Positions 643 through 45,475 of a DNA stretch of 64,000 bases are shown piece after piece. Below the pieces are notes generated by a model, which had not been told where the DNA came from, did not search any database, and was given only the letters and a program-made list of their open reading frames with translations. Numbering within the stretch: the stretch's first letter is position 1; every line of letters begins with the position of its first letter. The stretch lies in assembly GCA_032718475.1 (NCBI GenBank), contig JAUCBJ010000417.1, positions 1 to 64,000 of the forward strand, read 5' to 3'. The translations under genes and the position numbers were made by a program. The DNA is from Nemertoderma westbladi. Lineage: Eukaryota > Animalia > Xenacoelomorpha.

Positions 643-3600
643 CAGTTCGGCAGTGCCTATCAGGGTGGATCAATCAATGCCAGTACACAGTTCCGCAGTG
701 CCTATCAGGGTGGATCAATCAATGCCAGTACACAGTTCCGCAGTGCATATCGGGGTGGATCAATCAATGAGAGTACAAAGTTCCGCAGTGCCTATCAGGG
801 TGGATCAATCAATGTCAGTACACAGTTCCGCAGTGCATATCAGGGTGGATCAATCAATGCCAGTACACAGTTCCGCAGTGCCTATCAGGGTGGATCAATC
901 AATGCCAGTACACAGTTCCGCAGTGCCTATCAGGGTGGATCAATCAATGCCAGTACACAGTTCCGCAGTGCATATCGGGGTGGATCAATCAATGAGAGTA
1001 CAAAGTTCCGCAGTGCCTATCAGGGTGGATCAATCAATGTCAGTACACAGTTCCGCAGTGCATATCAGGGTGGATCAATCAATGCCAGTACACAGTTCCG
1101 CAGTGCCTATCAGGGTGGATCAATCAATGCCAGTACACAGTTCCGCAGTGCCTATCAGGGTGGATCAATCAATACCAGTACACAGTTCCGCAGTGCCTAT
1201 CAGGGTGGATCAATCAATGCCAGTACACAGTTCCGCAGTGCCTATCAGGGTGGATCAATCAATGCCAGTACACAGTTCCGCAGTGCCTATCAGGGTGGAT
1301 CAATCAATGCCAGTACACAGTTCCGCAGTGCCTATCAGGGTGGATCAATCAATGCCAGTACACAGTTCCGCACTGCCTATCAGGGTGGATCAATCAATGC
1401 CAGTACACAGTTCCGCACTGCCTATCAGGGTGGATCAATCAATGCCAGTACACAGATCCGCACTGCCTATCAGGGTGGATCAATCAATGCCAGTACACAG
1501 ATCCGCAGTGCATATCAGGGTGGATCAATCAATGCCAGTACACAGTTCCGCACTGCCTATCAGGGTGGATCAATCAATGCCAGTACACAGATCCGCAGTG
1601 CATATCAGGGTGGATCAATCAATGCCAGTACACAGTTCCGCAGTGCCTATCAGGGTGGATCAATCAATGCCAGTACACAGTTCCGCAGTGCCTATCAGGG
1701 TGGATCAATCAATGCCAGTACACAGTTCCGCAGTGCCTATCAGGGTGGATCAATCAATGCCAGTACACAGTTCCGCAGTGCCTATCAGGGTGGATCAATC
1801 AATGCCAGTACACAGTTCCGCAGTGCCTATCAGGGTGGATCAATCAATGCCAGTACACAGTTCCGCACTGCCTATCAGGGTGGATCAATCAATGCCAGTA
1901 CACAGTTCCGCAGTACCTCTCAGGGTGGATCAATCAATGCCAGTACACAGTTCCGCAGTGCCTATCAGGGTGGATCAATCAATGCCAGTACACAGTTCCG
2001 CAGTACCTATCAGGGTGGATCAATCAATACCAGTACACAGTTCCGCACTGCCTATCAGGGTGGATCAATCAATGCCAGTACACAGTTCCGCACTGCCTAT
2101 CAGGGTGGATCAATCAATGCCAGTACACAGTTCCGCACTGCCTATCAGGGTGGATCAATCAATGCCAGTACACAGTTCCGCACTGCCTATCAGGGTGGAT
2201 CAATCAATGCCAGTACACAGTTCCGCACTGCCTATCAGGGTGGATCAATCAATGCCAGTACACAGTTCCGCAGTGCCTATCAGGGTGGATCAATCAATGC
2301 CAGTACACAGTTCCGCAGTGCCTATCAGGGTGGATCAATCAATGCCAGTACACAGTTCCGCACTGCCTATCAGGGTGGATCAATCAATGCCAGTACACAG
2401 TTCCGCACTGCCTATCAGGGTGGATCAATCAATGCCAGTACACAGTTCCGCACTGCCTATCAGGGTGGATCAATCAATGCCAGTACACAGTTCCGCAGTG
2501 CCTATCAGGGTGGATCAATCAATGCCAGTACACAGTTCCGCAGTGCCTATCAGGGTGGATCAATCAATGCCAGTACACAGTTCCGCAGTGCCTATCAGGG
2601 TGGATCAATCAATGCCAGTACACAGTTCCGCACTGCCTATCAGGGTGGATCAATCAATGCCAGTACACAGTTCCGCACTGCCTATCAGGGTGGATCAATC
2701 AATGCCAGTACACAGTTCCGCACTGCCTATCAGGGTGGATCAATCAATGCCAGTACACAGTTCCGCAGTGCCTATCAGGGTGGATCAATCAATGCCAGTA
2801 CACAGTTCCTCAGTGCCTATCAGGGTGGATCAATCAATGCCAGTACACAGTTCCGCAGTGCCTATCAGGGTGGATCAATCGATGCCAGTACACAGTTCCG
2901 CAGTGCATATCAGGGTGGATCAATCAATGCCAGTACACAGTTCCGCAGTGCCTATCAGGGTGGACCAATCGATGCCAGTACACAGTTCCGCAGTACCTAT
3001 CAGGGTGGATCAATCAATGCCAGTACACAGTTCCGCAGTACCTATCAGGGTGGATCAATCAATGCCAGTACACAGTTCCGCAGTGCCTATCAGGGTGGAT
3101 CAATCGATGCCAGTACACAGTTCCGCAGTGCATATCAGGGTGGATCAATCAATGCCAGTACACAGTTCCGCAGTGCCTATCAGGGTGGATCAATCGATGC
3201 CAGTACACAGTTCCGCAGTACCTATCAGGGTGGATCAATCAATGCCAGTACACAGTTCCGCAGTGCCTATCAGGGTGGATCAATCGATGCCAGTACACAG
3301 TTCCGCAGTGCATATCAGGGTGGATCAATCAATGCCAGTACACAGTTCCGCAGTGCCTATCAGGGTGGATCAATCGATGCCAGTACACAGTTCCGCAGTG
3401 CCTATCAGGGTGGATCAATCGATGCTAGTATACAGTTCCGCAGTGCCTATCAGGGTGGATCAATCGATGCCAGTACACAGTTCCGCAGTGCCTATCAGGG
3501 TGGATCAATCAATGCCAGTACACAGTTCCGAAGTGCCTATCAGGGTGGATCAATCAATGCCAGTACACAGTTCCGCAGTGCCTATCAGGGTGGATCAATC

Positions 3601-5990
3601 AATGCCAGTACACAGTTCCGCAGTGCATATCAGGGTGGATCAATCAATGCCAGCACACAGTTCCGCAGTGCCTATCAGGGTGGATCAATCAATGCCAGTA
3701 CACAGTTCCGCAGTGCATATCAGGGTGGATCAATCAATGCCAGTACACAGTTCCGCAGTGCCTATCAGGGTGGATCAATCAATGCCAGTACACAGTTCCG
3801 CAGTGCCTATCAGGGTGGATCAATCAATGCCAGTACACAGTTCCGCAGTGCATATCAGGGTGGATCAATCAATGCCAGTACACAGTTCCGCAGTGCCTAT
3901 CAGGGTGGATCAATCAATGCCAGTACACAGTTCCGCAGTGCCTCTCAGGGTGGATCAATCAATGCCAGTACACAGTTCCGCAGTGCCTATCAGGGTGGAT
4001 CAATCGATGCCAGTACACAGTTCCGCAGTGCATATCAGGGTGGATCAATCAATGCCAGCACACAGTTCCGAAGTGCCTATCAGGGTGGATCAATCAATGA
4101 GAGTACAAAGTTCCGCAGTGCCTATCAGGGTGGAATAATCAATGCCAGTACACAGTTCCGCAGTGCCTATCAGGGTGGATCAATCAATGCCAGTACACAG
4201 TTCCGCACTGCCTATCAGGGTGGATCAATCAATGCCAGTACACAGTTCCGCACTGCCTATCAGGGAGGATCAATAAATGCCAGTACACAGTTCCGCACTG
4301 CCTATCAGGGTGGATCAATCAATGCCAGTACACAGTTCCGCAGTGCCTATCAGGGTGGATCAATCAATGCCAGTACACAGTTCCGCAGTGCATATCAGGG
4401 TGGATCAATCAATGCCAGTACACAGTTCCGCAGTGCCTATCAGGGTGGATCAATCAATGCCAGTACACAGTTCCGCAGTGCATATCAGGGTGGATCAATC
4501 AATGCCAGTACACAGTTCCGCAGTGCCTATCAGGGTGGATCAATCAATGCCAGTACACAGTTCCGCAGTGCCTATCAGGGTGGATCAATCAATGCCAGTA
4601 CACAGTTCCGCAGTGCCTATCAGGGTGGATCAATCAATGCCAGTACACAGTTCCGCAGTGCCTATCAGGGTGGATCAATCAATGCCAGTACACAGTTCCG
4701 CAGTGCCTATCAGGGTGGATCAATCAATGCCAGTACACAGTTCCGCAGTGCCTATCAGGGTGGATCAATCAATGCCAGTACACAGTTCCGCAGTGCATAT
4801 CAGGGTGGATCAATCAATGCCAGTACACAGTTCCGCAGTGCCTATCAGGGTGGATCAATCGATGCCAGTACACAGTTCCGCAGTGCCTATCAGGGTGGAT
4901 CAATCGATGCTAGTATACAGTTCCTCAGTGCCTATCAGGGTGGATCAATCGATGCCAGTACACAGTTCCGCAGTGCATATCAGGGTGGATCAATCAATGC
5001 CAGTACACAGTTCCGCAGTGCATATAAGGGTGGATCAATCAATGCCAGCACACAGTTCCGAAGTGCCTATCAGGGTGGATCAATCAATGCCAGTACACAG
5101 TTCCGGAGTGCATATCAGGGTGGATCAATCAATGCCAGTACACAGTTCCGCAGTGCCTATCAGGGTGGATCAATCAATGCCAGCACACAGTTCCGCAGTG
5201 CCTATCAGGGTGGATCAATCAATGCCAGTACACAGATCCGCAGTGCATATCAGGGTGGATCAATCAATGCCAGTACACAGTTCCGCAGTGCCTATCAGGG
5301 TGGATCAATCAATGCCAGTACACAGTTCCGCAGTGCCTATCAGGGTGAATCAATCAATGCCAGTACACAGTTCCGCAGTGCCTATCAGGGTGGATCAATC
5401 AATGCCAGTACACAGTTCCGCAGTGCCTATCAGGGTGGATCAATCAATGCCAGTACACAGTTCCGCAGTGCCTATCAGGGTGGATCAATCAATGCCAGTA
5501 CACAGTTCCGCAGTGCATATCAGGGTGGATCAATCAATGCCAGTACACAGTTCCGCAGTGCATATCGGGGTGGATCAATCAATGAGAGTACAAAGTTCCG
5601 CAGTGCCTATCAGGGTGGATCAATCAATGCCAGTACACAGTTCCGCAGTGCATATCAGGGTGGATCAATCAATGCCAGTACACAGTTCCGCAGTGCCTAT
5701 CAGGGTGGATCAATCAATGCCAGTACACAGTTCCGCAGTACCTATCAGGGTGGATCAATCAATGAAAGTACACAGTTCCGCAGTGCCTATCAGGGTGGAT
5801 CAATCAATGCCAGTACACAGTTCCGCAGTGCCTATCAGGGTGGATCAATCAATGCCAGTACACAGTTCCGCAGTACCTATCAGGGTGGATCAATCAATGA
5901 AAGTACACAGTTCCGCAGTGCATATCGGGGTGGATCAATCAATGAGAGTACAAAGTTCCGCAGTGCCTATCAGGGTGGATCAATCAATGC
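643..5990. repeat. 45-bp tandem satellite/minisatellite, ~119 copies
   Basis: Unit CAGTTCCGCAGTGCCTATCAGGGTGGATCAATCAATGCCAGTACA repeated without apparent indels. A few recurrent variants (AGT/ACT, GCC/GCA, AAT/GAT, GAGAGTACAAAG) occur in patches. Confidence 0.98.
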
Positions 5991-6552: not shown

Positions 6553-7290
6553 GAACACATTGCGGAGGCGCGAAGTATCCTAGACAACGAGGATGGACTG
6601 ACACCGATCCACGCGCACTTCTACGATACGAGCAGCACCTACTCGAAGATGACGGGGGACCACGCGGGGTTCTACACCGACTCGCTGCGGTACCTGGGCT
6701 GCAAGGACCTCGCCGAGATCGGAACTGAGGAACGCAAGGAACGCGCGTTCCACGTGGGACTCGCGGCCCTCCTCGCCCGGGGCATCTACAACTTCGGGGA
6801 ACTCTTAGCGCATCCGATCCTCGAGTCGCTCGTCGCAACGGAGAACCAGTGGCTCGTTGATCTTCTCTTCGCGTTTAACTCGGGGAACATTCGAAGATTC
6901 AACGAACTTCATTCCTCTTTATCGAAACAGATCGATCTAGAGAAATCCTCTGTGTTTCTAACGCAGAAGATCCGTCTGATGGCCCTCGTAGAGTTGTCCT
7001 TCACTCGCCCAGCTAACCATCGCGTTCTCACTTTCTCCGAGATCTCCGCTGTCTGCCAGGTCGCCGAAGACCACGTAGAGATACTGGTTATGCGCGCGCT
7101 GTCTCTCGGTTTAGTTAAGGGGTCTATCGATCAGGTAGACGGGAAGGTTTATATCTCGTGGGTGCAGCCGAGAGTGCTGAGCAGGGAACAGATTGGGGAG
7201 ATGAGTGCGCGGGTTGGGGAGTGGAAGACCTCGGTGGAGACCTTGGTAGACCTGCTGCACAAACAGGCAGGACAGGGGGTCCTAGGGTAG
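6553..7290 (+). CDS. PSMD13: 26S proteasome non-ATPase regulatory subunit 13 (Rpn9), terminal coding exon; upstream exons not found in the window
   Basis: Acceptor cccacttAG|GAA at 6551-6552, in frame with EHIAEARSILDNEDGLTPIHAHFYDTSS...YTDSLRYLGC, GIYNFGELLAHPILESL, and PCI-domain end VEILVMRALSLGLVKGSIDQV...WVQPRVL. Confidence 0.93.
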   Translation, partial: EHIAEARSILDNEDGLTPIHAHFYDTSSTYSKMTGDHAGFYTDSLRYLGCKDLAEIGTEERKERAFHVGLAALLARGIYNFGELLAHPILESLVATENQWLVDLLFAFNSGNIRRFNELHSSLSKQIDLEKSSVFLTQKIRLMALVELSFTRPANHRVLTFSEISAVCQVAEDHVEILVMRALSLGLVKGSIDQVDGKVYISWVQPRVLSREQIGEMSARVGEWKTSVETLVDLLHKQAGQGVLG

Positions 7291-8838: not shown

Positions 8839-10827
8839 CTAATCAACAGCACTGAGTGGAACATCCTGGTGAACATTAGAGGCAATTCTAACATCCGCAT
8901 TATCCAGCATATAATCAACCAATGATTTAAGTATGGCGCAGTTGGATACCGTACTTGTATCGCATATAAGAGATAAATGTCTGCGAGCTCGGGTTATAGA
9001 AACGTTAATACGACGTCCATCCGACAGAAACCCAACTGCTCCATCGCTGTTGCAACGAACCAGGGACAGTATCACTACCTCCTTCTCACGACCTTGGAAA
9101 CCATCAACTGTTTGAATATCCAACTCAGGAAACTTGTCTGCAAGTTTACTCGTTAGCATAGAAACCTGTAGATTATAGGGAGTTATTATAGCGATATCAT
9201 TAGGATTAACATTAGCTTGCACAAGAGATTCCACATGACTAGCTACTAAATTAATTTCTCCCGGATTGCCGAAAGAAAGTGTCTCACTGCATTGTATTTC
9301 CTGTGTACCACATCCCGCAGTGTCTATGAGAAGTAAAGGTGTTCGTGTGTCTGCTGTATCGATAACACCTGGGATGTGAGACAATAAATGCGATCCCACA
9401 CTCCTGTGGGCTTCTAACTTGTTATCATAGAATTTGTGTGAAGGCCACTTCATAATCAACTCATTCATCCGATACTGAGTGGTTAACATCCTGCTAATAT
9501 TCGGGTGCATCTCCAATAGCCTCTGCATCAACGTGGTACCGAGGCCCTGACTACGGGCGTCCGCACTCATTATAGTTGGGGCTAGTTGCTGATGGTCCCC
9601 TGCTAACACGCAGCGTGTTGTCCCACTCAGTGGGATCCAACATCCAACCTCTAAGGCCTGAGCGCACCCATCTATAACAACAACGTCGAAGTGATCATCT
9701 GGAAGGACCTTCAGAGGACCTTCGCGCGAAGAACCAGACAAAGTCGCCAAAACTACATCCGCGTCGCATAAAGTTTCGTAAACCAAATGTTTATTGCGCT
9801 GATCTATTTTATTTTTTAACGATCTCAAAAAAACATTTTCACTTTTCAGTTTCGTTGCTTTTTTACGTTTTAGTTTTACTCCTGACAATAATCTCGAATT
9901 ACGACGGAGCATTTTTTCGACTTCCGTCGCCTGAAACACAAATGATTCAGAAATTTGAGAGACCATAGCCTCGAAGCAAACGCCGAGGTTAGCGGGAGAA
10001 ACCCTAGCAGGGTGGCCCATGCGGATAATACGAACTCCGCATTCATTCAACATCTCCGCAATATTGTCAACAGCAACATTGGACGGGGCACAAGCTAACA
10101 CTTTATTCCCCCTGTCAACTTCCTGACGAATGAGTTCAATAATCGTAGTAGTTTTCCCAGTCCCAGGCGGGCCATGAATAATGGAAGCCTCTTTTTGGTT
10201 CAATGCAAATGCCACTGCATCTTTCTGGCTTTTATTGAGCAATGCGTTCCAGAAATTTATCTCATTATAATCATCAATGTCCAGAGAAAAAGCTGAGGGT
10301 TGTAAAATTCCAAAGCAAACCTTAGCCAGCTCAGACCCAGGAACTATGGCTGAGCCATCTGATATATTGATCATATGATTGGCACTACCCACTAATCTCT
10401 TATGAGTAACATCGTTTGATATCTTTACAAGTTGAAAACAAGTATCATAAGTTTCCAAATCATTTGATATTCCATCCAACACTAATGTTATTTCAGTTTG
10501 TGATCTACTGTACACAACCCCTGTGGATATGTGGCTTTCAATAGATCCACCAGATATACCGACCCCTATAATATCACCATGGCGGATTGAATGTGGAGGT
10601 AGATTACCACTGTCATCATTCCACGCCAATTCAGTCCTCCCGAATGTAACTATTTTCCTTCCAAATAGCCCGATAAACGAAGACGTCATTACAAGTTCTG
10701 ATATACAAATACCCCTTTGTTCCAACTGCTCCAAGGAACATTGACTCAATAGCGCAGTATGATGTTCAATTTCAGCAACTCGTTCCATGTCTAGTAATAA
10801 CTTCGTTTTGTGAAAAAATTGTACCAT
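8839..10827 (-). CDS. IGHMBP2: IGHMBP2/SMUBP-2-like Upf1-family (SF1B) helicase, intronless, helicase core only
   Basis: First ATG at 10827 (the track ORF starts at TTG). N-terminus FFHKTKLLLDMERVAEIE...LEQRGICI...GLFGR aligns with the SMUBP-2 start. Motifs LNKSQKDAV, IIHGPPGTGKT, CAPSNVAVDN, LAGDHQQL, QYRMN, TVDGFQGREKE, RRINVSITRARR. Walker B reads IDGCAQ. No R3H or AN1 domain. Confidence 0.88.
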   Translation of the reverse strand: MVQFFHKTKLLLDMERVAEIEHHTALLSQCSLEQLEQRGICISELVMTSSFIGLFGRKIVTFGRTELAWNDDSGNLPPHSIRHGDIIGVGISGGSIESHISTGVVYSRSQTEITLVLDGISNDLETYDTCFQLVKISNDVTHKRLVGSANHMINISDGSAIVPGSELAKVCFGILQPSAFSLDIDDYNEINFWNALLNKSQKDAVAFALNQKEASIIHGPPGTGKTTTIIELIRQEVDRGNKVLACAPSNVAVDNIAEMLNECGVRIIRMGHPARVSPANLGVCFEAMVSQISESFVFQATEVEKMLRRNSRLLSGVKLKRKKATKLKSENVFLRSLKNKIDQRNKHLVYETLCDADVVLATLSGSSREGPLKVLPDDHFDVVVIDGCAQALEVGCWIPLSGTTRCVLAGDHQQLAPTIMSADARSQGLGTTLMQRLLEMHPNISRMLTTQYRMNELIMKWPSHKFYDNKLEAHRSVGSHLLSHIPGVIDTADTRTPLLLIDTAGCGTQEIQCSETLSFGNPGEINLVASHVESLVQANVNPNDIAIITPYNLQVSMLTSKLADKFPELDIQTVDGFQGREKEVVILSLVRCNSDGAVGFLSDGRRINVSITRARRHLSLICDTSTVSNCAILKSLVDYMLDNADVRIASNVHQDVPLSAVD

Positions 10828-11641
10828 ATCTGGCGTATTGCGGACAGCATCGCCGGGTGGATTAACGAATTCTCTCGTCGTGTTTCCGACTAGAGTTGCG
10901 GTTGTGAAACTCTTGCAGGGGGCGATGTATTCGCATCCACGAATACGTAGGAATCTTGGAAACACTGCGGTATACCTCAATATCGCTGTACTTTCATAAA
11001 AGTTTATTAGAGGTTATAAATTAGCCTATAAAAGGAATGAGCGATTAATTAAGCCAACCGCTGAACCGGAGTATGAGTCATGGAATCGCGATTACTCTTC
11101 GAACACAGGACTATTCGTGTGACTTACCTGTAGCCACACATCGTCATTAGATTAGAGCCTCATGATGTCAGCTTGTCAGGCAAACAGGGTTCTGACATTA
11201 CGAACGGTACGTGGCCTACTTAATTTTACTACCGGTCAGGTACCTGTAATATCGTAATACATGTAATATGACCTAACTTATCTCCTGACTTATGCGCAAT
11301 AGGATTCAATTTGAATTTCCCTCTCAAGACTTACGAGTCCTACTAAACTGAATTCCTTGATCATAATGGGGAAATTATTAAATAATGCTGTTTATTGTAT
11401 GAAATTTATATATAGGATTATTATACAGAAAGTGCGTATTGCCGTGACATTATACTATATACGACTCTATAACACGTTATATAACATATTATACAGTACT
11501 AGTTGGTTCACCATTTGTAACTCTTGGGATATGAAATAGCAATCTGAAACAGCTATTATAAGCAACCTTTTATCATGAACATATTCTGAATAGTTACGCT
11601 TAGACCAAAGAGAATTACAGTACACTGTAACCCTATACACT

Positions 11642-12348
11642 GTCAGGTCAGGTATTCTAGGTCATTGATCAAGAAAACTTGCCACCTCCGTGCAGCATAA
11701 AGGAGGTGCCACCTGTAGCTGCATAGACCCTCTTACTAGGGCAAATCTGGTCCTGTAACTAGGACGCCCTTCGTTCTGGGATAAGGACGCCCTTGGTCCT
11801 GGATTAAGGACCCATATACTTGGCTGCAGGGGTATATGGCCTGGCCAGGCAGATGGTGATCTACCAATGGCTGGTCAGGAGTAGAGTGTTCTCATGTCCA
11901 CTCTGAGTGCACTTCACTGCGACTTGCACCTGGCAGCAGGGGTACAGGGCATGACCCAGCAGATGAGCTGCACAGCCAATGGTGGGTCATGTGCGCGAGA
12001 GTAGATATGGGTGATGGGCCTCATATCTGACTCCACTGCGACACCCACCCTGTGGAATGGCAAACCAGGGTGTGGTATTTGCCCCGAGAGCTGACTCGGC
12101 AAAAAAGCACCCCCCAACCCCCACTATGGATTACATTAGTAATGCGGAGGTCCAGCCACTAGAGGCCAGTGGAATGACTGGACACAATCGGCCTCACAGG
12201 CGTCAGATATCTCCTGACCGGCTGCCTGTCTCACCCCCTACTGGAGAGAGAGAGCGGCAAACAATTCTTTGAGTCTCTTTCCTGATGACCTTTCTGACCC
12301 AAACCCTGGGTCACCAGGGAGGCCAGATTGTGAGGGGGAGAGGGATTC
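11642..12348 (+). mobile_element. RTE-like non-LTR retrotransposon family A, 5' UTR portion (interrupted by LTR element 1)
   Basis: Begins GTCAGGTCAGG, highly similar to 45476-46180, and continues seamlessly at 24593 into an APE endonuclease region. Confidence 0.85.
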
Positions 12349-13544
12349 TGTAAAAGCTTTTGTGGGATAACTGATTCATTTGCTTTGCTAACCAGTTCCC
12401 CCCAGTCGCTGAATACTCTAAAAAGGGATCTATAGGTAAAATAGTGCAAGCTACCAGCTTATTGGCTGATGGGCTGTACGAGAGTATCTGGGTTCTGTTC
12501 GATCGGCCAACCAGCTTAGGGAGGTTGCCTTAGCCCTGCTGTCCGTATCGGCCAATAGAATTTGAGTGGGCGTTGATTTTGACCTATCCCAGAGCTACTG
12601 AACTGAATTTTCCTATCTCACTGCTCATCCTCTGTGTTGGACGGGAGCTTCGGGGAATAAGGGTAGTTGGTATCCTCGTATAGTAAGGTAGTCATATGAT
12701 TTTATATAATTCTGTTGTTGTGTTCCCATTTTTCGCCATAACACCGGCTTTTGGGAAGAACTCTAGTAAAACTGCTTAAATTATCGAAAGTATAAACTGT
12801 TATCAACCTAATCAATCAATCTTATCTGATCTAATTAACTCACTATTAATCATATTGTTTGTACTGTTATTTACCGTCAGTTATTAATTGTATCTATTTG
12901 TTGATGGAAATATTGCTCTTTGGAGAATACCGATAAATCACCCAAATTTCCCAATTTTCTTGATACACTACAGGTTAGAGAGACAGGCTATATATAACAA
13001 TTGCGATTTATATTAATGTGGTGTGTATTGAATCGAATGTTATTTAGCAGACCCTACATGAGTCAATTGCTGCTCTCTTTATGTGTGATCAAATTTACTG
13101 ACGGTCGGCAGAATAGTGTGCATGATTGTGATTGGTAACAAAGCATTTCCTAAAGAATGCGCCTTATACTTTAATCATAAGCAGTATCGTTGCGTTTAGT
13201 ATAAGTCCTAGTTCTGTTTAAATAGATAAAGCGCCACGTCCTAAAGGAACTGTTAATATTTCCCGAAAGCCAATAATATCTGTCAGAAATTAATTATTAG
13301 TGATCAATCGAATAATACAGTAGATTTACACTGCAACCTTACACTGCAATAATAAAATTTAAGCAGCCGAATTCAGCCTCCCGGGTGTAGATCCATCGGG
13401 TGAATGATCGCGCATGGGCTGACTTCGGGTAATGTTTTGTTTATTAGCATAAAATATTGTCGTATGCTAAAGGTGTTTTAATTAACTAAAAGACATATAA
13501 ATTTTGGCAGGTTAAACTGCTAAAGGTCTTCAAAAGCGCGAACA
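12349..13544 (+). repeat. 5' LTR of element 1
   Basis: TGTAAAAGC...GCGCGAACA, direct repeat of 23392-24587. Confidence 0.97.
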
Positions 13545-13555
13545 ATAACAGTTTA
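13545..13555 (+). promoter_or_regulatory. Non-tRNA primer-binding site candidate (self-complementary to LTR 12793-12803)
   Basis: ATAACAGTTTA directly after the LTR CA is the exact reverse complement of TAAACTGTTAT in the LTR. No TGG-type tRNA PBS nearby. Confidence 0.75.
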
Positions 13556-15735
13556 CGATCTTATTGCAGTAGGCAATAAGGTTGCAAAATACCGTAGTGA
13601 CCGGTAAACCTGAACCGGTACTTCTGTAGGTCAGTAGGCCTAACTGTCATCACCGGTACCGGTACTGCTGTACAAGTACATTTAGTATTATTCGATTTTG
13701 ATTATTGTATACCGGTAGGTCTTGGTACTTAATCAGGGAACGGCCGCCCTGATTTTTATTTGAGATTCTACTTATTTCTGTCGGTTTTATTTACTAGTAG
13801 GCTAATATTGAGCAGAAGGCGTGTGACCCTGCTCAGATTGTTCAGATAATTGTAGGCTGAGCTGCTGTCTGACTGTTGTTGGGTTTGGAGAGATTACGGC
13901 GTGTGTAGAGTTTGTCTGATAAAGTGCCGTTAGTAAGTTGGGGCAGCCATATGCTGTAAGGTCAATCCCCTCTTAAAGAATAAGTCGTACTACCGTGTTA
14001 GAACGCATACTAACGAACTGTTTCAGAATCTGCATATACTGTAGTTTATTTAGGCTTGATCGTAGTCTGCCAGTGTTTTAGCCTGTGTTTGTTTGTGTGG
14101 TCTGTTCAGGTACCGTAATAGTTATTACTCAGATATTTTGTAGGCTGGATTGTTGTCTAGCTATTATTAGGTCTGAAGAGATTGCTGTGTGTGTGGAGTT
14201 TGTCTGATAAAGTGCGGTTAGTAAGTTGGGGCAGCCATATGCTGTAAGGTCAATCCCCTCTTAAAGAATAAGTCGTACTACCGTGTTAGAATGCATACTA
14301 ACTAACCATTTCAGAATCTACACGTACGGTAGTTTATTTAGGCTTGGTGGTAGTCTGCCAGCATTTGGTTTGTATTTTGTTTGAGTATTCTGTACGGGTA
14401 GCGTAATATTTATTATTCAGAGTTTATGCGATTATTCGCAACATTCATGTCCCCAAGTTTATTCCTACAGTAATTGTGCTTGTTATACATACCGTTATAG
14501 TTAAATTAACCCCGGTACTACACGGGCTGCTTGGCGTAGGACAAGACTGGTGACTTTGTGCTTCGGTCACTCCAGCAGATGCCGTGGTTCTTTTAACTGT
14601 TCAAGTATATTTAACTACTGATTATTTGTTATACCGGTACTTGTACCTAATTTAGGGTTTAGTGTACAGTGCTTTCCGAAGTAATTAGTGTGTAGGCAGT
14701 ATATTTGTGTTGTAAAGTGGTTGATAGGCACATTCGTTAGCTCTATTAACTTCTAGGTAGGAACACTCCGTGATACATAACGTAGTACCTATAGCGATAC
14801 GGTTATAGGTCGTCAGGCGGTGGTATTTTCCTATCTGGACAGTACAGTATATTTACTACTACTTATTATTTCAAATACCGTAGTACCCTGTCCATTGTAA
14901 TAACCAGAATTCTAACCCTTTGTTAGGCTGGTTTGTAGACTTCCTGTAAAATTACCCTAAAAATTCGTACGTAATATTTTTGTTGTGTTTAATTAGAGAA
15001 TTAATCTCACCCATATCGTAAGTAATTTGTAGTATTAAGTAACTTAGGTAAATTAGAATTATCAGTTTTAGTGTCAAATAAATAGCACTTCACTGAGAGC
15101 GCACAGCTTCTGTGTAGTGACCCCCCAGAAATAATAACATTTATTTCAAATATTGATAAAAAACCCTTTTTAAACGGGTATATAAATATTATAAATCAAC
15201 TCAAACGATTTATAAATAGTAGGCCTGCCATACAACAACTAGGTCTCAATATCAGTTGGACTACTGCTTAAATAACGGTAATAAAGTAAGTTAAAGTAAC
15301 CAAGTAACCTTAAAATATTCAGAAATTCAATTATTCTAAAAATAATTGACATACCGGTACTTACCATAGGCTTATCCTATTTATTTCTATAAATTCGAGC
15401 TGAAATCATACCGGTATTCTGTAATTAATTCTAGTTCATAATTATACTTATATATACTATAAGTGTCAGCTGTATACCGGTATTCACGATAGGCCTATTA
15501 TATATTTATATATATTTGTGCTAAAATTATATACCGGTACTCTGTGACAAATCTAGTCTGTAATAATACTTATATATATATTATAAGCATACCGGTATTC
15601 TAATATATTGTATATATATCACGTTACACTGAGTAACGGTATCGGTAATAAATTACTAGGCCAGCGGTCATACTGAATTACTAGACTTGCTTTAACTGAA
15701 ACTATAGTAGTAGACATTCAACTGTATAGCTAAAC

Positions 15736-18700
15736 ATGTCTGACACTCAGCAAAACCTGTCAGACAGTCTGATCGATACAACTATCTGTGACTCAGATAG
15801 GAGTATGGAGCGATTAAGAAAGGAGTTCAGCTCACCTCCTACTGCAAAAAAGGTCATCCCTCCAGTAGTATCAGACCCTAGGCTAATCCACCATAGGTCC
15901 ATCATAGGCACTCGGGCACAGGTCAAACGGAACCAAGAGGCAGTTGTCCCATCGCAGCAACATCTTGGTCAAGAACCTACTTCCCAGCGACCCGATAGCT
16001 CCAGCAGTTCGGATACTGTAGAGCTGACCCCCGAACGCGGAGTGCAGATGGCTGTTACAGTCTACTCGGACCCCCTTCTTACCCTGCCTGCTGCAGTGCT
16101 AACTACTATATTCATTGCGGTGGAGGAACATCAAGCCGACTGGGCGAGGAATAAGCGAGCGACCCAAGATAATTATGCGGGATACGCCAGGGAAGAATTA
16201 ATGTCTATTGTCGAGTTACAATGGAACTTTCCCGGACTCGGACTCCCGTTGGACCTGTCCGAGGCTACTTGGGAAGATATACACAGGATGGGAGTGGCAA
16301 AAGATACAATGGATCCAGCTGTTTGGAAGAGGTCGGCATCAGGATATGTGCAGGGATTCTTCGGCTCCTTGGAGCGATTGGAAGAACAACTGTTTCGACA
16401 ACCTCAAGGACCTCAAGAGCAGGAAGAGCTGCTATACCAAGTACGCGAAAGAACCCTACGCATTCGACTAATCCTCTCAGCCTTTGAGGAAACTTCCAAA
16501 AGAAGACAGGACACGTCGCTGCAGGTTGCTGTCAAAACTTGGTTACATCGGGTAGATCTCAAAGTACAGGAAACGGCCCCGTGGAAATCCCAGCTGGCTG
16601 AGAGATCAACCTATGAAGAACCAACTGATGTCACCCTTTCTCAAGCGGAAAGCGAAGAGACCGCCGAGAAACCGCGAACTAGAGACGCTATCGACATTTA
16701 TTTGTCCGACTATCAGCGATTCCTAGGAGACGAAGAGTTGAGGAGACGGCTGTCTGGACTTTCCCCTAATAGTGAAGGAACCAAGCTTGTGTTGGACTTA
16801 AACGATGCCGAAATGTTAGCTGCAAACCAAGCTGAATGTGATGAAAAACTCCGCCTCACTAGAGTCCGAGAAGAACAAATAAAGAAAAGAAGGATAGAGG
16901 AACAAAAGGCGGCGGCTATGGCAGAAGCAGAAGTAGAAAGAAAGGCAGCGGCGGCAGATGCAGAAGCAGAAAGAAAAGCAGCAAAGGCAGTGGCAGAAGC
17001 AGAACGGAGAGCCTCTGAGCAGACTACCCAACTGGAGTTGGAAAATCTGCAAGAGACACAAGACAGTATAAATAAACAGTTTACTGCTAATCAAATGCAG
17101 ATGATGAGAAAATCTACTCCCAAGCGCCAGGGATACACATCCTCGGAGGAAGGCGAGACTACCGATCCTGAAGGCGGAGGAAATAGATCTCATCTAAGTA
17201 GGCGTAGAAAAACATCTTACCGTCGCAAATTGCCTGATTTGCCACCAGCTGTTAGAAGACAGCTAGCTAGCACAGACTTGAGTAGTATAGAACCTACAGC
17301 CCAAAGTATTAAGGTCCAAAGACTCTCTACAATAGTTGATGAGCCTGAGATAATTAGGCCTGTCGTTCCCAAAGTCACTTCTGTGTTAGAGACCCCTGTA
17401 CTTCCAGAGCTTAACTCTAAATTCCCTTTACATAGTACTACACTGCCTGTACCCGGTGGAGCAGTCCAAGGGAATATCCCTGTCAAGATAGCAGAGAGAG
17501 AAATCAAAAATTTGTCTCCCGTCGTCCCGCGTCAGCCCGCTATTATGTTAGCGACTCCCGCTTCGGCGGTTGAGTGGGTGGAAGAGGGACGGCGGGGGAT
17601 GAATCTCCTAATAGGACAAATGCAGGAGACTGTCCACCAACTTAAGGGAACAGTGAGAGAAGGTAGAGCAGAGTTGCAAGAAGTGCAGCAAAGTATTGCA
17701 CTAGAACGCGATAAATTAGTCAATATACAAAGGGGCATACCAATACCCCCTGTAACATTGTGTCAACCTGTTAGGTCTGAAGTATTACATGCGCAAGGTG
17801 TGGAGCCTATACGCATCTATACTGCTAGTGAAGTTGAAACTCCTATAACAAACCCTATTAAGGGTGATTATAGACCTGTTATTAATGATATTCCCTATAG
17901 ACCTGATAATGATCCGAGAAATTTATATACCGATAATTCGATATTAAATAACACGATGGCCCAAGAAAGCTTTACGCGTCAGATGGCTAGAACAGAAGCC
18001 CGCCAAGCGGTCAAAGTGGGAGAGATCGTCAAATTCAATGGAGATGAGATGAAATGGTTACCTTTCAACGAATATTACAAAGATAGCATACAGAACTCTG
18101 TACTATCTAACGGAGAGAAACTTAGATTCCTCATCAAGTGCTTGGAAGGACCTCCCAAGTTAATGGCGTTAAAGTTTATTGGACATCCAGATGGGTTAAG
18201 ACAAGTTTGGGATACATTAAACATCAGGTATGGTAACAAGGATAACATAGCTAAGTATTTGTATGCAAAATTAGTAGCCCCTCGACACTTCCTTAGTAGC
18301 GGGATTATAGAGTTTTCCGATGAAATTCAAGAGATCTGTAGACAACTGGACTGGTTAGGTAAGTCGCATGAATATCAGAGTTCCATGGTCATTGGAGCCG
18401 TAGTCTCTACTTTACCAAAGGGTGGAGTATGTACGCGCTGGGACAAGAAAGTGTTGTACATGAATGAACAACAACGACGAAGTCCTACCATGGCTGATCT
18501 CATGTCCTTCTTAGATAGTGAAGTAAAATTACAACTCATAAGGCAGTCCAGAGAGAAAACATCGGAAAATAAGGTAAGTGAGAAACCCGTTTCTAGGAGA
18601 AGGATAATACCAGTGTGTTACACTGACGACGGCGAGAGCCAAGCTTCTCAAGAAGAGGACAGCGGGAAAGACACAGCAAAATCTTACTATGACAACAAGA

Positions 18701-20337
18701 CCTATAAAGACGTAAGTAAATACAAGTCTCGAATCAGTGACAGGAAAGAACAGGTAACAACAACTCCTCCTACGTCTCCTAAGAGAATTCACGGAAGAAA
18801 GCCCGAAGAAAGAACGAGAATGCATAACGTTACCCAAGGTAAGGTGAGTAACATCAAACCAAAATGTGCGCTGTGCGACGGGCCCCACCGTTTGAGTGCG
18901 TGTGCTGAATTTCTAAAGAAATCCCCTGTAGACAGACGTACAGTCCTGTGGAATAAGCGGTTATGCTATAATTGCCTCAGATCAGGACACCAACGGCGAA
19001 CCTGTTACTCCGACGTAAAGTGTGCAAAGTGTGGCGCGAAACATCACATCTTGTTACACAGTGAGTTCGAACGAGACAACCCGAGTCAGGTAAGTGAGCC
19101 CGAACTACATGTCCAATTCAGTGATGTGAACGACACTGACCAAGGTTCTGAGTGGGAAGGATTCTATACAGACGAATTCTCCGATGCCAACGAATCCTGT
19201 TATCTAATAAATACCACAGGATGGATGAAAAGGATGCCTTCACGCTTTTCACGCGCTTTTCACGCTTTTCACCTTACGGATGAAAAGGACACTGACGAGT
19301 TTACTCCAACTCCTTTTGACAAACAACCATCTTGGAAAGTTCCAACTTCCAACATAGGAATAAGAGAATTTCCTGTAGTGCAAGTTCGAGTTCATGGTCT
19401 CAATAAGAGTTACATAGTGAACGCCCTACTTGACTCCGGCAGCACAGGAACATTCATCGATCAAGAACTAGCCGAAGATATCTTTGCTGGACAACCCAAG
19501 TTCCGGACTAAATTGAATATGTCAGGAATTATGCAGGTTTGGAAATCTACCCTAACGGCAGATTACTATGTAGGTGTGTTGTCCACCCCCCAGGATAAGT
19601 TAGGAACACAAGGTATAAGGTCAGTAAAAATGGTGGCTATAAAGAACTTTGCTACTACTCAAGCAGACCTTTATAATTGGGACGAAGATGAGAGCATCCA
19701 ACATCTTAAGATACCTCGATTCCAGACAGATTATCCTGGAGTGCAAATACTCATCGGCCAAAACGCGCACGAGGCGCTCGAAACATTAGAGAAACGGCCT
19801 GCTCAACCACAGCCATTACAAACTTATGCGGTAAGAACTAGAGTAGGTTGGTACTTCACTGGCCCTTCCCGTAGAACTCTCAAAGAGAGATTACCTCAAC
19901 AACAGGTATACCAAGTAAAGGAATGGGAAGTGGAGAGCAGTGATGTGGACGATCCAACTGAGGGAACACCATACTCCTCAGATAATGACGATATTAACTC
20001 CAATGTAGATCAATGGAGACATTGCCTTGGGACGATTAATCCAGCCGACATCGCTTCCAGAGGAGCAACTCCTCAAGAACTGATGGATACTCCAGGCTGG
20101 TTAGGTGGATCCGACTCCTTAAGTAAAGAAGAAGAAGAATGGCCTCCTCATCTTACCACGGCAGAAATTAGACAGGCCAAGGGAGCGGAGAAAGTAACAC
20201 AACAACTCAATCGCCCAGCTAGTCGTTTATGTTTACTGGAAAGAGACCGAAAACTGTCCGAAAACTATGGAAGGCAAGATACTCTTCCTACGACTACTTC
20301 CCTAATCCGACAAATATCTAGGGACTCCATAACGTGA
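15736..20337 (+). CDS. BEL/Pao Gag-protease polyprotein with RT and integrase core deleted in frame
   Basis: Pao gag core (KFNGDEMKWLPF...LSNGEKLRFLIKCL), three zinc knuckles (CALCDGPHRLSAC, CYNCLRSGHQRRTC, CAKCGAKHHILLH), protease ALLDSGS, AVRTRVGWYFTGP, then directly the RNase H tail QWRH...NPADIASRG...W..G......WP and an integrase-tail-like RPASRLCLLE. No YxDD and no DDE. Confidence 0.9.
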   Translation: MSDTQQNLSDSLIDTTICDSDRSMERLRKEFSSPPTAKKVIPPVVSDPRLIHHRSIIGTRAQVKRNQEAVVPSQQHLGQEPTSQRPDSSSSSDTVELTPERGVQMAVTVYSDPLLTLPAAVLTTIFIAVEEHQADWARNKRATQDNYAGYAREELMSIVELQWNFPGLGLPLDLSEATWEDIHRMGVAKDTMDPAVWKRSASGYVQGFFGSLERLEEQLFRQPQGPQEQEELLYQVRERTLRIRLILSAFEETSKRRQDTSLQVAVKTWLHRVDLKVQETAPWKSQLAERSTYEEPTDVTLSQAESEETAEKPRTRDAIDIYLSDYQRFLGDEELRRRLSGLSPNSEGTKLVLDLNDAEMLAANQAECDEKLRLTRVREEQIKKRRIEEQKAAAMAEAEVERKAAAADAEAERKAAKAVAEAERRASEQTTQLELENLQETQDSINKQFTANQMQMMRKSTPKRQGYTSSEEGETTDPEGGGNRSHLSRRRKTSYRRKLPDLPPAVRRQLASTDLSSIEPTAQSIKVQRLSTIVDEPEIIRPVVPKVTSVLETPVLPELNSKFPLHSTTLPVPGGAVQGNIPVKIAEREIKNLSPVVPRQPAIMLATPASAVEWVEEGRRGMNLLIGQMQETVHQLKGTVREGRAELQEVQQSIALERDKLVNIQRGIPIPPVTLCQPVRSEVLHAQGVEPIRIYTASEVETPITNPIKGDYRPVINDIPYRPDNDPRNLYTDNSILNNTMAQESFTRQMARTEARQAVKVGEIVKFNGDEMKWLPFNEYYKDSIQNSVLSNGEKLRFLIKCLEGPPKLMALKFIGHPDGLRQVWDTLNIRYGNKDNIAKYLYAKLVAPRHFLSSGIIEFSDEIQEICRQLDWLGKSHEYQSSMVIGAVVSTLPKGGVCTRWDKKVLYMNEQQRRSPTMADLMSFLDSEVKLQLIRQSREKTSENKVSEKPVSRRRIIPVCYTDDGESQASQEEDSGKDTAKSYYDNKTYKDVSKYKSRISDRKEQVTTTPPTSPKRIHGRKPEERTRMHNVTQGKVSNIKPKCALCDGPHRLSACAEFLKKSPVDRRTVLWNKRLCYNCLRSGHQRRTCYSDVKCAKCGAKHHILLHSEFERDNPSQVSEPELHVQFSDVNDTDQGSEWEGFYTDEFSDANESCYLINTTGWMKRMPSRFSRAFHAFHLTDEKDTDEFTPTPFDKQPSWKVPTSNIGIREFPVVQVRVHGLNKSYIVNALLDSGSTGTFIDQELAEDIFAGQPKFRTKLNMSGIMQVWKSTLTADYYVGVLSTPQDKLGTQGIRSVKMVAIKNFATTQADLYNWDEDESIQHLKIPRFQTDYPGVQILIGQNAHEALETLEKRPAQPQPLQTYAVRTRVGWYFTGPSRRTLKERLPQQQVYQVKEWEVESSDVDDPTEGTPYSSDNDDINSNVDQWRHCLGTINPADIASRGATPQELMDTPGWLGGSDSLSKEEEEWPPHLTTAEIRQAKGAEKVTQQLNRPASRLCLLERDRKLSENYGRQDTLPTTTSLIRQISRDSIT

Positions 20338-21863
20338 TAGCATGTGGAGTGGGCGTGTGACTATATCATTTTATATTTGTTTTCATTTTATATTTATGTA
20401 TGTATTATTATGTAATTTTATTATAATCGTTTTCTTTAATTTTATTTAGTAGAATGTTATTTTAGAATATTTACTGTCCGTATTATATTATAAATGCGAG
20501 ACTATAGTAAGATGACATGTCAGTACTTCTTAAAGTACAATAAAGCCACTACTATATTTAAGTATTATTGGTAGGCAGAGTATTAGGAATGCAAAGTTCA
20601 GATCCTCGTGTCTCGGCTAAACCAAGCTCTGGGTAGACCTTGGAAACGACTTGCCTCTTCACACTGACATTGCTTCGTGCGATATTGCTCTTCTACCTTA
20701 TAACAAATAATACATATAGTAGCGTGATGTCCCTCTAACAGTAGCGTAAATCGCAAATAAATCTGTTAAACTTTTTGACCATCTGTAATTCTAGTCGATT
20801 AAGATATCGTGGCACCCACCGATATACTTGAAAGACAAATTCTAGAATCAGTGGTTAACGTCCCCAGACAAGTTCTGGAATAAATCGGTGCTCATCCTAA
20901 ATATTAATTTAATATTTATTAAAATCTGTAAAATCCCGATCCTTTAAAATTTCTAGTCAATTAAGATATCGCCGTATTTACCGATATTCTTAGAAGGACT
21001 ATTTTATAGAATCAAGGATCCTAAGTCCCCAGATATGCTCTGGAATAAAATTTGTGTCAATTTAACATCAAATAATAAAATTCACGGGAATAAATTTAAA
21101 TTCATATTCAAATGAATTTCATAAATTGTCATTTTTGTGCAATTTATAACATTCCCAAAATTCCAGTAATTAATAGATCATGGGAGCGGAGATTCATATT
21201 GAGTGTACTAGAGTGCGAGAATCTCCAACATATAGTCAATAGCCGATAAAATTTATAAAATCATGCATAAAGAGGATATTGACAATTAAAGAATTACTAT
21301 TAAATAGCATCCCAGATCTGTATGCATGAGAATTACCCTAATTCTACCGCTAGTTTTCCATAATGTCACCATGGCAACACCCACGCTAGAATTAGAAGCA
21401 AGTTAAAGGAACAGTAAAAAGCTTGCCCCATTGCGTAGCATAAGAGTATACATAGCGCACTATTAGTATCCAAGGATACATAGTAATAACGTGACATTCT
21501 GGAAGACACTGACTAACGGACAAATGGCATGCATGTGTGCAGTAAGTAATGATTGTATGGAATTTGTGCGTTTATAGGTGAATGTTACTACTAAAGTGTG
21601 TTTACAGTAGCTAATCGCAATTGTAAAATAGCCCTAACTCTACCGAGATAACCTCAAGTGGATTCAAACCTTTGGGACGGACAGTGGTGGGACTTGTGCC
21701 GGTTATAGTTGTCGTGCTGTTGCTACATGTTGGCGTAAACACCGCGACAACGGTACATCGGCGCTGAGAAACCCACTGTCCGGGGGCAAAGCCTAGTAGG
21801 CAGCGACGCCCGCTTGCCTAAAATATTAACTCATATTGATATTAATAAACTCAGATAGCAGAT

Positions 21864-23313
21864 ATGACGGAATTGATAGAACATGACCTTGGTATCAGGG
21901 AGCGATATACTCTACCTTTACAAGCGTTTGTGGATAGCTTGATACGCGGTGAAGACGATCCGACTATTACGGAGGACGATGGTCGTTATATCGAACCGCC
22001 GATGTCCCAGGAACAACTTACGCGTGAATTGGACTATAGAAAATTCACCGCTCCCTATACGAATCGTAATGGTACGTATATGGACTTCTTAACTACCGGC
22101 CATCCTACCGATTTACATGATACGGACGATGTATACACCGAAAGGGAAATGGTTCTATTTAAATATCATACCCAGCAGAGTCGTAACGATAAACCGAGAA
22201 TAGATCACGAAAATTATATTCGTAACAGACTGGGAAGACGAACCCATATGTTTAGAATCTGAAGAGATTCAGCCCCCCACGTCTCGGAGTAGCGATAGCG
22301 ACTACATATGGGAATGGTATCAAGGTCCACAGTGTCTCACTGCGTACGATTATCGCCATGCCAACTATGTTTCTCGGCAACGTTGTCGGTTATGCGCATC
22401 GAGAGACCATATTACGTCTATGGACACCAACGATCTCTGTTCCTATTTCCACGAGCAACCGTCGATGGAAATCTATTGTGCATATTGTCGGCTTAATAAT
22501 TTGCACATTTTTGCTGTCTGCCCCCAATTTATGACTCAATGCCATCATTGTCAATTAAAAGGACACGCCAGCTTTGATTGTCCCTTTAATCATGATTTAG
22601 AGAGCGTAGATGAAATGATTGTACTACGTTATATCAGAGCTTGGGAAGCGAACGCTGATTTACATTGTGATTCACGCCATCGCTATTACCCTGGACGCGC
22701 TTACGAAGGAGATTATGCGTTCCATCCTTATTTATTCGCTTCTGTCGAACAGAAATCACGCATATCAAGTTATGAACTACTGAAGCGCGTTGGAGAATGT
22801 ATTTCAACCAAATATGTACGCAAATTTCTCAGGAGCATTAATCCGAGTGACATCTATTCTTACAACTTAATAAACTTTATCCGTCAAGACCCTGCCTATG
22901 GAGACTTATTTGTCAACTCACACCCCGAGTTACAGGAAGTATATCGACGGCCTTACGAGTACCGAGCCCGCGAACGCGAGTTGGAAAGAACCATTAAACC
23001 AAGGAAGTTTCTAACTGCCTATGGTCCACCCTCGGCCCTCGTTCAGACCACTCGTAAAGGACCCGTAAGAGCGGCTGCCTTGAAACGAGCTCTCAAAGCC
23101 GTTAGACCCCTCTCCCCGGACGTTGATGTCAATCAACCCGGTACTTAGACCGGCGGATATACCGATCGTAATCCCATACCTTCTGATGCAATCATATTGC
23201 ACCCTTCACCCAGGAGTTATAGCCCTCCTCGTAAAGTGGCTCGCCCCAAAGAGAAAAGGACTCTTGCTAGCTTTAAAAAACTGCGTAAACGCCGTCCGCG
23301 CAAGAAAGACTAA
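21864..23313 (+). pseudogene. Internally deleted copy of the element's extra ORF2
   Basis: N- and C-terminal parts match 53597-57851. About 2.8 kb is deleted near 22232 at a GAAGAC microhomology, causing a frameshift. TAG at 23146-23148 corresponds to TCG in element 2. Retains CxxC..H..C knuckles and a basic tail. Confidence 0.85.
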
Positions 23314-23391
23314 CTGTTTAGAGTATTTTTATATTTTAGAAACTGTGATTTTGTATATTTTATAGACTTAAATCCCATTTTCTGGGAGCGG

Positions 23392-24587
23392 TGTAAAAGC
23401 TTTTGTGGGATAACTGATTCATTTGCTTTGCTAACCAGTTCCCCCCAGTCGCTGAATACTCTAAAAAGGGATCTATAGGTAAAATAGTGCAAGCTACCAG
23501 CTTATTGGCTGATGGGCTGTACGAGAGTATCTGGGTTCTGTTCGATCGGCCAACCAGCTTAGGGAGGTTGCCTTAGCCCTGCTGTCCGTATCGGCCAATA
23601 GAATTTGAGTGGGCGTTGATTTTGACCTATCCCAGAGCTACTGAACTGAATTTTCCTATCTCACTGCTCATCCTCTGTGTTGGACGGGAGCTTCGGGGAA
23701 TAAGGGTAGTTGGTATCCTCGTATAGTAAGGTAGTCATATGATTTTATATGATTCTGTTGTTGTGTTCCCATTTTTCGCCATAACACCGGCTTTTGGGAA
23801 GAACTCTAGTAAAACTGCTTAAATTATCGAAAGTATAAACTGTTATCAACCTAATCAATCAATCTTATCTGATCTAATTAACTCACTATTAATCATATTG
23901 TTTGTACTGTTATTTACCGTCAGTTATTAATTGTATCTATTTGTTGATGGAAATATTGCTCTTTGGAGAATACCGATAAATCACCCAAATTTCCCAATTT
24001 TCTTGATACACTACAGGTTAGAGAGACAGGCTATATATAACAATTGCGATTTATATTAATGTGGTGTGTATTGAATCTAATGTTATTTAGCAGACCCTAC
24101 ATGAGTCAATTGCTGCTCTCTTTATGTGTGATCAAATTTACTGACGGTCGGCAGAATAGTGTGCATGATTGTGATTGGTAACAAAGCATTTCCTAAAGAA
24201 TGCGCCTTATACTTTAATCATAAGCAGTATCGTTGCGTTTAGTATAAGTCCTAGTTCTGTTTAAATAGATAAAGCGCCACGTCCTAAAGGAACTGTTAAT
24301 ATTTCCCGAAAGCCAATAATATCTGTCAGAAATTAATTATTAGTGATCAATCGAATAATACAGTAGATTTACACTGCAACCTTACACTGCAATAATAAAA
24401 TTTAAGCAGCCGAATTCAGCCTCCCGGGTGTAGATCCATCGGGTGAATGATCGCGCATGGGCTGACTTCGGGTAATGTTTTGTTTATTAGCATAAAATAT
24501 TGTCGTATGCTAAAGGTGTTTTAATTAACTAAAAGACATATAAATTTTGGCAGGTTAAACTGCTAAAGGTCTTCAAAAGCGCGAACA
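23392..24587 (+). repeat. 3' LTR of element 1
   Basis: Direct repeat of 12349-13544, followed by TSD GATTC. Confidence 0.97.
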
Positions 24588-24592
24588 GATTC

Positions 24593-29871: not shown

Positions 29872-30193
29872 CTAAAAATTAACAGTGAAATAATAATAAT
29901 ATTCGTATTAAATGTCGATTTTATGAATCTTATATTAATAAATGTGTAGGCTATGGACGAGTTTACATATACTTGTCATTATTGTCAATATTTCATGCGC
30001 TGTTTTTTTCTGAGAAAGTTACTAAATATATAAATACTATCCACTGGTTAATAATATCGAAATATGAGCCTTCTAACGACCAATCAACCTGTCCCCTCTA
30101 CCTCATCAGTGCAACAAAGCTTACTGATTACGGTGATAACAATAAACGTAATTACAAAACTAAATATAAACTTCTTAGTTCGACATAACTTAC

Positions 30194-45460: not shown

Positions 45461-45475
45461 GTTTTTGGGTTTTTG

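Follow-up and report, generated by a model that had tools for sequence, protein, structure and literature searches.

Two LTR elements were identified by self-comparison in the window, i.e. the whole analysed stretch of 64,000 nucleotides of Nemertoderma westbladi DNA, and some form of self-priming very probably operates in them. At the level of sequence, self-priming is well supported by covariation between the two elements, the exact edge of the pairing, a young insertion and the occurrence of the signature in 8 of 11 other BEL/Pao families. We also consider it probable, with less confidence, that the full model applies, in which an 11-mer of the element's own RNA would serve as primer, only its 5' copy would be used, the 3' copy would be masked and a helper would provide the reverse transcriptase (RT). 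The elements are composed as follows.

12349-24587, forward strand: element 1, with two 1196-bp LTRs and 2 mismatches between them
12344-12348 and 24588-24592: target duplication of element 1, 5 bp
12349-13544, forward strand: 5' LTR of element 1, 1196 bp, TG...CA, 2 mismatches against the 3' LTR
15730-20337, forward strand: open frame of element 1, 1535 codons, with Gag (DUF1759, zinc knuckles), a protease motif and an RNase H tail of about 50 aa
21849-23148, forward strand: remnant of a second reading frame of element 1, with Cys/His knuckle-like motifs
23384-23391, forward strand: purine-rich tract preceding the 3' LTR of element 1
23392-24587, forward strand: 3' LTR of element 1, carrying the second copy of the 11-mer at 23836-23846
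38739-59063, forward strand: element 2, with nested insertions inside
38733-38738 and 59064-59069: flanks of element 2, identical 6 letters on both sides
38739-39901, forward strand: 5' LTR of element 2, 1163 bp
53582-57851, forward strand: broken second reading frame of element 2, with several stops and frame changes; one piece is a weak 3'-5' exonuclease-like lead
57930-59063, forward strand: 3' LTR of element 2, with the 11-mer at 58279-58289 and the partner of masking helix H3 (see below) at 58716-58724

With 2 LTR mismatches in 1196 bp and a 5-bp duplication, element 1 is a young insertion. As it inserted recently with its odd primer site, this site would be compatible with reverse transcription. 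In the LTR pair of element 2, 1087 aligned positions match and 35 do not, with indels in addition, and the 3' LTR begins with TT. An 8-nt purine-rich tract precedes the 3' LTR in both elements.

The open frame of element 1 contains DUF1759 (E 8e-12) and a protease match below the Pfam cut-off. Its protein matches have BEL/Pao-type domain sets, with 20-54% identity over parts of the query. Alignments with full BEL/Pao polyproteins jump from the protease to the RNase H tail of about 50 aa, and by this comparison the frame lacks RT, integrase and most of RNase H. In element 2, neither RT nor integrase nor the RNase H tail was found, and this element has lost more coding content than element 1. 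An earlier note on this DNA had called both BEL/Pao elements, which holds for the BEL/Pao-type Gag and the RNase H tail of element 1 but not for RT and integrase, absent from both. Judged from their sequences, both are non-autonomous BEL/Pao derivatives, not canonical members, and would depend on a helper because RT and integrase are absent. No autonomous member was seen. The protein collections contained no close relative of the Gag-protease part (best match 22% over half the query; best E 3e-34) and no homologue of the second reading frame. Furthermore, a 25-nt LTR pattern gave no match in metagenomes, and two viral-contig scans gave no matches.

Both insertion sites start with GATT (12344-12348 and 38733-38738), with a duplication of 5 bp in one case and apparently 6 bp in the other, which may reflect a target preference (n=2). 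Element 1 lies inside a repeat with an endonuclease-like frame (11642-24899), a sister copy of which is found inside element 2 (40593-50803), and element 2 also contains a LINE with endonuclease and RT. The surroundings are those of a repeat-rich animal genome, with long uninterrupted frames of housekeeping genes at 6553-7290, 8839-11013 and 26247-29975 (PSMD13-, SMUBP-2- and RPAP1-like). A neighbouring host gene shows 44-47% identity to many animal groups, and the SMUBP-2-like protein at most 47% to the relatives listed. A 45-bp tandem array of about 119 copies (643-5990) is open in several frames, one of them with 1791 codons from ATG, and a DDE_1 (pogo/Tigger-like) transposase frame of 601 codons is located at 31477-33282.

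The candidate primer and its binding position are located at the following places.

12793-12803, forward strand: LTR 11-mer of element 1, putative self-primer, with the predicted cut after 12803
13545-13555, forward strand: primer-binding position of element 1, directly after the terminal CA, no TGG
39088-39098, forward strand: LTR 11-mer of element 2, putative self-primer
39902-39912, forward strand: primer-binding position of element 2, no TGG

The earlier note had reported a perfect 11-nt complementarity between the site after the LTR and the LTR 11-mer, and its sequences and coordinates proved exact in both elements. In each of them, the complement directly adjoins the terminal CA (offset 0). 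As also claimed, the two elements differ at 3 positions and all 3 differences are two-sided; two of these are the end positions of the 11-mer. No other LTR complement in the first 36-39 nt of each leader is longer, and the pairing ends at the LTR edge. Under a strict test (contiguous, offset 0), a match was reached in 19 of 20,000 dinucleotide shuffles of the LTR for element 1 and in 39 of 20,000 for element 2; under a lenient test (contiguous or spliced, offsets 0-4), it was reached in 5/500 and 6/500. Among internal 11-mers, 10 of 9,837 and 13 of 18,016 had any LTR complement. A tRNA site starting with TGG is absent, in agreement with the earlier note, as the first TGG lies 178 nt (element 1) and 366 nt (element 2) into the leader. 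No tRNA gene was found within the window, and element 1 gave no Rfam match. With -9.9 and -7.5 kcal/mol, the A/U-rich primer duplexes are weak.

Two further statements of the earlier note had to be given up. An extension of the pairing past a bulge is unsupported because the leader bases concerned fold into a conserved local hairpin (P 0.93-1.0) and because position 13557 reads A instead of G in most of the depth of run X1 (177,514 of 197,158 summed contig depth). Likewise, the similarity between the LTRs, which had been taken to indicate a U3/R boundary near the 11-mer, resumes only at 12881/39246, about 80-150 nt past the 11-mer, and therefore cannot place this boundary.

Look-alikes of the primer motif occur three times in the LTR of element 1 (12768-12779, 12793-12803 and 13513-13523) and twice in that of element 2. 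The look-alike in U5 (13513-13523) was rejected as a primer, as it has a fixed mismatch, shows no covariation and lies inside a hairpin. A primer formed across a splice junction was rejected for the LTRs of the window as well: the best match is contiguous in both, and no junction lengthens it.

Other copies were compared over 12745-12864 using contigs of the DNA runs X1, X3 and X4, which belong to three studies. Summed contig depth, which is shaped by graph breaks and is not a copy number, was high across 12769-12802. From 12793-12796 to 12805-12808 it fell from 373,894 to 5,890 in X1 (63-fold), from 230,860 to 4,093 in X3 (56-fold) and from 9,219 to 445 in X4 (21-fold). Among the substitutions listed, 9 of 9 are at 12812 or later, and 11 of the 12 indels listed (out of 18) are at 12804 or later. 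Together with the fall in depth, this positioning of the variants suggests that constraint ends at the predicted cut site. The contigs of other copies match element 1 through the tenth base of the 11-mer and diverge thereafter; as many contigs end at 12802, the 11th base varies among copies. Loose contig ends after 12795 correspond to an 11-mer with one A fewer in its A run, and one contig has one T fewer in the T run of the site, the counterpart of that variant. This third variant pair is matched but is unlinked on one molecule.

Metagenomes were scanned with a BEL/Pao alignment. The best 80 of 555 confirmed stretches yielded 78 loci, which the survey query biases toward one branch. LTR pairs were searched in 64 of the 78 loci, 14 being left out as short or with little flank, and 22 of these 64 were scored; the remainder were near-copies of scored families or had no definable LTR end. 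One survey row (L024) was dropped. For 11 of the 22 scored families, the LTR end was set by a repeat pair. The other 11, L009 and L018 among them, were picked by the match itself and were excluded from the count below; their complements of 10-11 nt are illustrative only. Splice junctions were permitted in the match search, and any GTA or GTG was allowed as donor.

Under these rules, 8 of the 11 families with paired LTRs (L002, L012, L017, L020, L028, L032, L040 and L069) have a self-complement of 10-15 nt starting 0-3 nt past the LTR. For L032, the LTR end was chosen by eye once the match was known and lies 6 nt inside the BLAST end, and for L069 it is a contig end. In each of the eight, no more than 1 of 500 shuffled leaders and 1 of 23 foreign leaders equalled the match. 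One family (L017) matches contiguously and seven match across a predicted GT-AG junction, six of the seven with a GTAAG donor. The signature was missed in 3 of 11 families: a TGG site is present in L054, and the scores of L025 and L076 were 6 and 7 nt. L027, a near-copy of L025, scored 11. The distance from primer end to LTR end in the survey families is about 40-216 nt. Many relatives appear to reach a primer restricted to the 5' copy through an intron in the LTR, the primer existing only after splicing. Counting L006, L018, L021, L027, L045, L046, L056, L060, L066 and L071 as well, the matches to a predicted exon-exon junction span 10-15 nt and mostly have GTAAG donors.

Phylogenetically, a single branch (SH-aLRT 94, with an inner branch at 100) unites the survey families and excludes the TGG pair as well as insect BEL/Pao proteins. 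Element 1 falls outside this branch on a long branch of its own, and a grouping inside it was not rejected (AU p 0.42). Within the survey, the contiguous family L009 is sister to the spliced family L018 (SH-aLRT 100), and the start of exon 2 is common to both, which suggests that lineages may move between contiguous and spliced gates. The stretch that is contiguous in L009 (122-132) and spliced in L018 would represent an intron loss or gain between close relatives.

Structure predictions for the LTR and leader RNA revealed the following elements.

13502-13525, forward strand: predicted U5 hairpin, present in both elements, holding the 9-of-11 primer look-alike 13513-13523, which does not covary
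13556-13584, forward strand: predicted leader hairpin adjoining the primer site, present in both elements (P 0.99-1.0)
12771-12806, forward strand: predicted masking helices of element 1, 5' strands (H1 12771-12778, H2 12787-12795, H3 12798-12806)
13132-13185, forward strand: predicted masking helices of element 1, 3' strands (13132-13140, 13164-13172 and 13178-13185), around a small hairpin
39064-39101, forward strand: predicted masking helices of element 2, 5' strands
39529-39573, forward strand: predicted masking helices of element 2, 3' strands, at the place homologous to 13132-13185

When upstream sequence was included in the folding, three helices linked the region of the 11-mer to the middle of the LTR in both elements. 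The 5' strands in element 1 lie over the block common to other copies (12769-12802). H3 comprises bases 6-14 counted from the first base of the 11-mer in both elements, across the predicted cut, and in both its partner adjoins the same conserved motif. Between the elements, two-sided changes affect 4 of 9 pairs in H3 and 7 of 8 in H1 (11 of 17 together), and one-sided changes are absent (0). Interaction energies with the own partner were -16.5, -19.1 and -18.8 kcal/mol, compared to -3.0, -4.1 and -1.3 kcal/mol with swapped partners. The energy of the mask duplex was reached by 32 of 500 shuffles for element 1 and 2 of 500 for element 2, and in neither LTR did the mask rank within the top 8 among about 90 windows. 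Against shuffles the duplex is modest, and the argument for the mask is therefore drawn from its register and its covariation in two families. We predict on this basis that a second partner in the LTR masks the 11-mer, in the same register and with different letters in the two elements.

With a leader of 40 nt, the predicted probability of the primer helix was 0.96 (element 1) and 0.92 (element 2) when the 11-mer formed the start of the RNA; it was 0.82 and 0.91, 0.0 and 0.23, and 0.0 and 0.0 when the RNA included 15, 30 and 60 nt of upstream sequence, respectively. The mask is thus predicted to beat the primer helix only with about 20-30 nt or more of RNA upstream, and the folding favours a transcript that begins at most about 20 nt upstream of the 11-mer. 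With a leader of 80 nt instead of 40, the primer helix of element 2 reached 0.04-0.26. The folding energy of the whole region was not unusual (z -1.6 and -1.3). Among the survey families, a mask spanning the cut site is predicted for L009 (contiguous); masking is not general, because the helix of L017 (contiguous) survives 60 nt of upstream sequence (0.99).

These predictions are compatible with the following course of events. If the RNA begins no more than about 15-20 nt upstream of the 11-mer, pairing of the 11-mer with the primer site is predicted, closing a loop of 741-803 nt. By analogy with Tf1, the RT/RNase H of a helper element would cut after the 11th base (12803 in element 1) and extend the new 3' end, so that minus-strand DNA synthesis would start from the element's own RNA and not from a tRNA. 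Close to the RNA's 3' end, where the upstream LTR sequence is present, the three helices are predicted to hide the cut site together with most of the 11-mer. Masking would prevent the copy in the 3' LTR from pairing and from being cleaved, and in relatives an unspliced intron would have this effect. The earlier note had left the route open between the RNA 5' end and the copy near the 3' end; the 5' copy fits better, and with the 3' copy predicted to be buried by the mask, only the 5' copy would prime.

Instead, the pairing might be a structural switch that acts in packaging, dimerisation or translation control, while a host RNA or tRNA fragment binding the same site primes synthesis. That the 11-mer has two mutually exclusive covarying partners would suit such a switch, and half-tRNA priming is known in Copia lineages according to the available parts of PMC6317226 and PMC10886601. 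A host primer would keep the site constant, however, whereas the site differs between the two elements and among 19 other families and always matches the own LTR; the pairing measures 10-15 nt throughout, with its start 0-4 nt away from the edge of the LTR. We consider this explanation unlikely.

It is less likely still that self-priming uses the 11-mer of the 3' LTR or that of a second RNA molecule, with the RNA trimmed or cut back to the 11-mer by a 3'-5' exonuclease that the second frame might supply. The 11-mer is indeed present in both LTRs, and the exonuclease-like lead in the second frame reached a feature score of 0.89, under the tool's line of 0.9, but Pfam gave no exonuclease match in this frame at E up to 1. 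Furthermore, the 11-mer is predicted to be buried in the presence of upstream sequence, and neither LTR has an AATAAA or ATTAAA upstream of it, the only one in element 1 being located 558 nt downstream.

We give slightly less credence to self-priming by the 5' copy from a start far upstream, in which a longer capped primer would be used and the mask would gate this 5' copy itself up to its refolding by a chaperone, for example Gag. In line with such a start would be CCAAT boxes upstream of the 11-mer (at 241 and 179 nt), a TATA-like box 90 nt before it in element 1, and the spliced relatives, in which exon 1 gives only part of the primer and some of which pair well with 60 nt upstream. On the other hand, element 2 has no TATA-like box, and at equilibrium almost no primer helix is formed with 60 nt upstream in either element. 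Finally, a chance match in decayed elements is very improbable: the sequence is A/T-rich and the window holds only two related elements, but the shuffle tests, the three two-sided changes, the very young insertion and the recurrence in 8 of 11 independent families speak against it.

A TATAAA overlaps the start of the 11-mer in element 1, and transcription could therefore start downstream of the 11-mer. Sites resembling splice donors are located at homologous places of both LTRs (12974 and about 39339) and acceptor-like sites near the LTR end (13510 and 39869), all of them downstream of the 11-mer; they may serve a subgenomic RNA. A GT-AG joint was not seen in run X5, which is only guessed to be RNA, and this result speaks neither for nor against splicing.

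The preferred reading, self-priming from the 5' copy, has a precedent in Tf1, in which the initial 11 bases are paired with the primer site and the RNase H cleavage falls between bases 11 and 12 (available text of PMC7175516 and PMC10085805). Self-priming has been published for Tf1/sushi elements and Tcn1 and predicted for TAR Copia elements of plants, as stated in the accessible sections of PMC6317226, PMC10085805 and PMC5341516. With Tf1/Tf2 of Schizosaccharomyces pombe and Tf1/sushi including Tcn1, the elements of the window share the 11-nt self-complement at the primer site and the lack of a tRNA site. In contrast to Tf1/sushi elements, which are Ty3/gypsy chromoviruses, they have no RT or chromodomain integrase, and their remaining protein is BEL/Pao-like. 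They also differ from Tf1 in the 741-803-nt loop and the covarying masking helix. The primer of Tf1 is formed by the first 11 nt of the transcript, and in the elements of the window the 11-mer may lie at or near the RNA start. Compared to the Tf1 pretzel, an arm at the U5 end is predicted in both elements (P 0.5-0.74), but beside the site the leader is predicted to form the local hairpin, which outcompetes the second arm although a 10-nt complement is present at 13343-13352. The elements would work like Tf1 but stand outside the Tf1/sushi membership. The TAR lineage of plant Ty1/copia (Houba, Osr-1) resembles them in that self-priming was predicted from sequence outside Tf1/sushi; it is a plant Copia lineage, and a mask or intron is not mentioned in the available part of PMC6317226. 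The metagenome families share a complement of 10-15 nt located 0-4 nt after the LTR, which is contiguous in L009 and L017 as in the window, whereas most of them need a predicted LTR intron to be removed.

Cer7, a BEL element with its own tRNA, was left out of the comparison, as no paper containing the name was found. The ICTV account of Belpaoviridae describes an 18-nt site for tRNA-Arg or tRNA-Gly and priming by host tRNA, which agrees with the description of BEL/Pao as tRNA-primed in the earlier note, and calls BEL/Pao replication poorly understood (PMC8742986). The elements of the window resemble Belpaoviridae, whose LTRs measure 0.2-1.2 kb, in TG...CA LTRs of about 1.2 kb, target duplication, purine tract, DUF1759 Gag, protease motif and RNase H tail, and differ in that the 18-nt tRNA-Arg/Gly site is absent, pol is deleted and an extra 3' reading frame is present. 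No report of self-priming for BEL/Pao was found in the literature searched, a scope outside of which lay supplements, Repbase, GyDB and most subscription journals, where it may already be mentioned. Priming is not discussed in the accessible portions of the BEL/Pao papers PMC3118150, PMC554778 and PMC6238403; those of PMC3601003, PMC5443660, PMC10886601, PMC8220671 and PMC13524379 contain no such report, and a term search of the available text of PMC12440569 gave no match. As far as this literature shows, BEL/Pao self-priming would be a new variation on a known Tf1-like mechanism.

Self-priming in these elements would bring the mechanism to a third LTR superfamily, after Ty3/gypsy and Ty1/copia. 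More tentatively, at somewhat less than even chances, a large part of the BEL/Pao superfamily may self-prime, with the primer limited to the 5' LTR copy by two interchangeable gates, namely splicing or a covarying RNA switch. Such elements would escape annotation tools that require a tRNA site or be ranked lower by them. The finding also raises the question of how a self-priming element stops the identical sequence of its 3' LTR from priming or being cut, to which the mask and the intron would be two answers. Independent evolution in BEL/Pao, as the earlier note inferred, is one possible origin; hairpin priming has also been speculated to be ancestral (available part of PMC3601003), and self-priming in BEL/Pao would bear on whether tRNA priming is the ancestral state.
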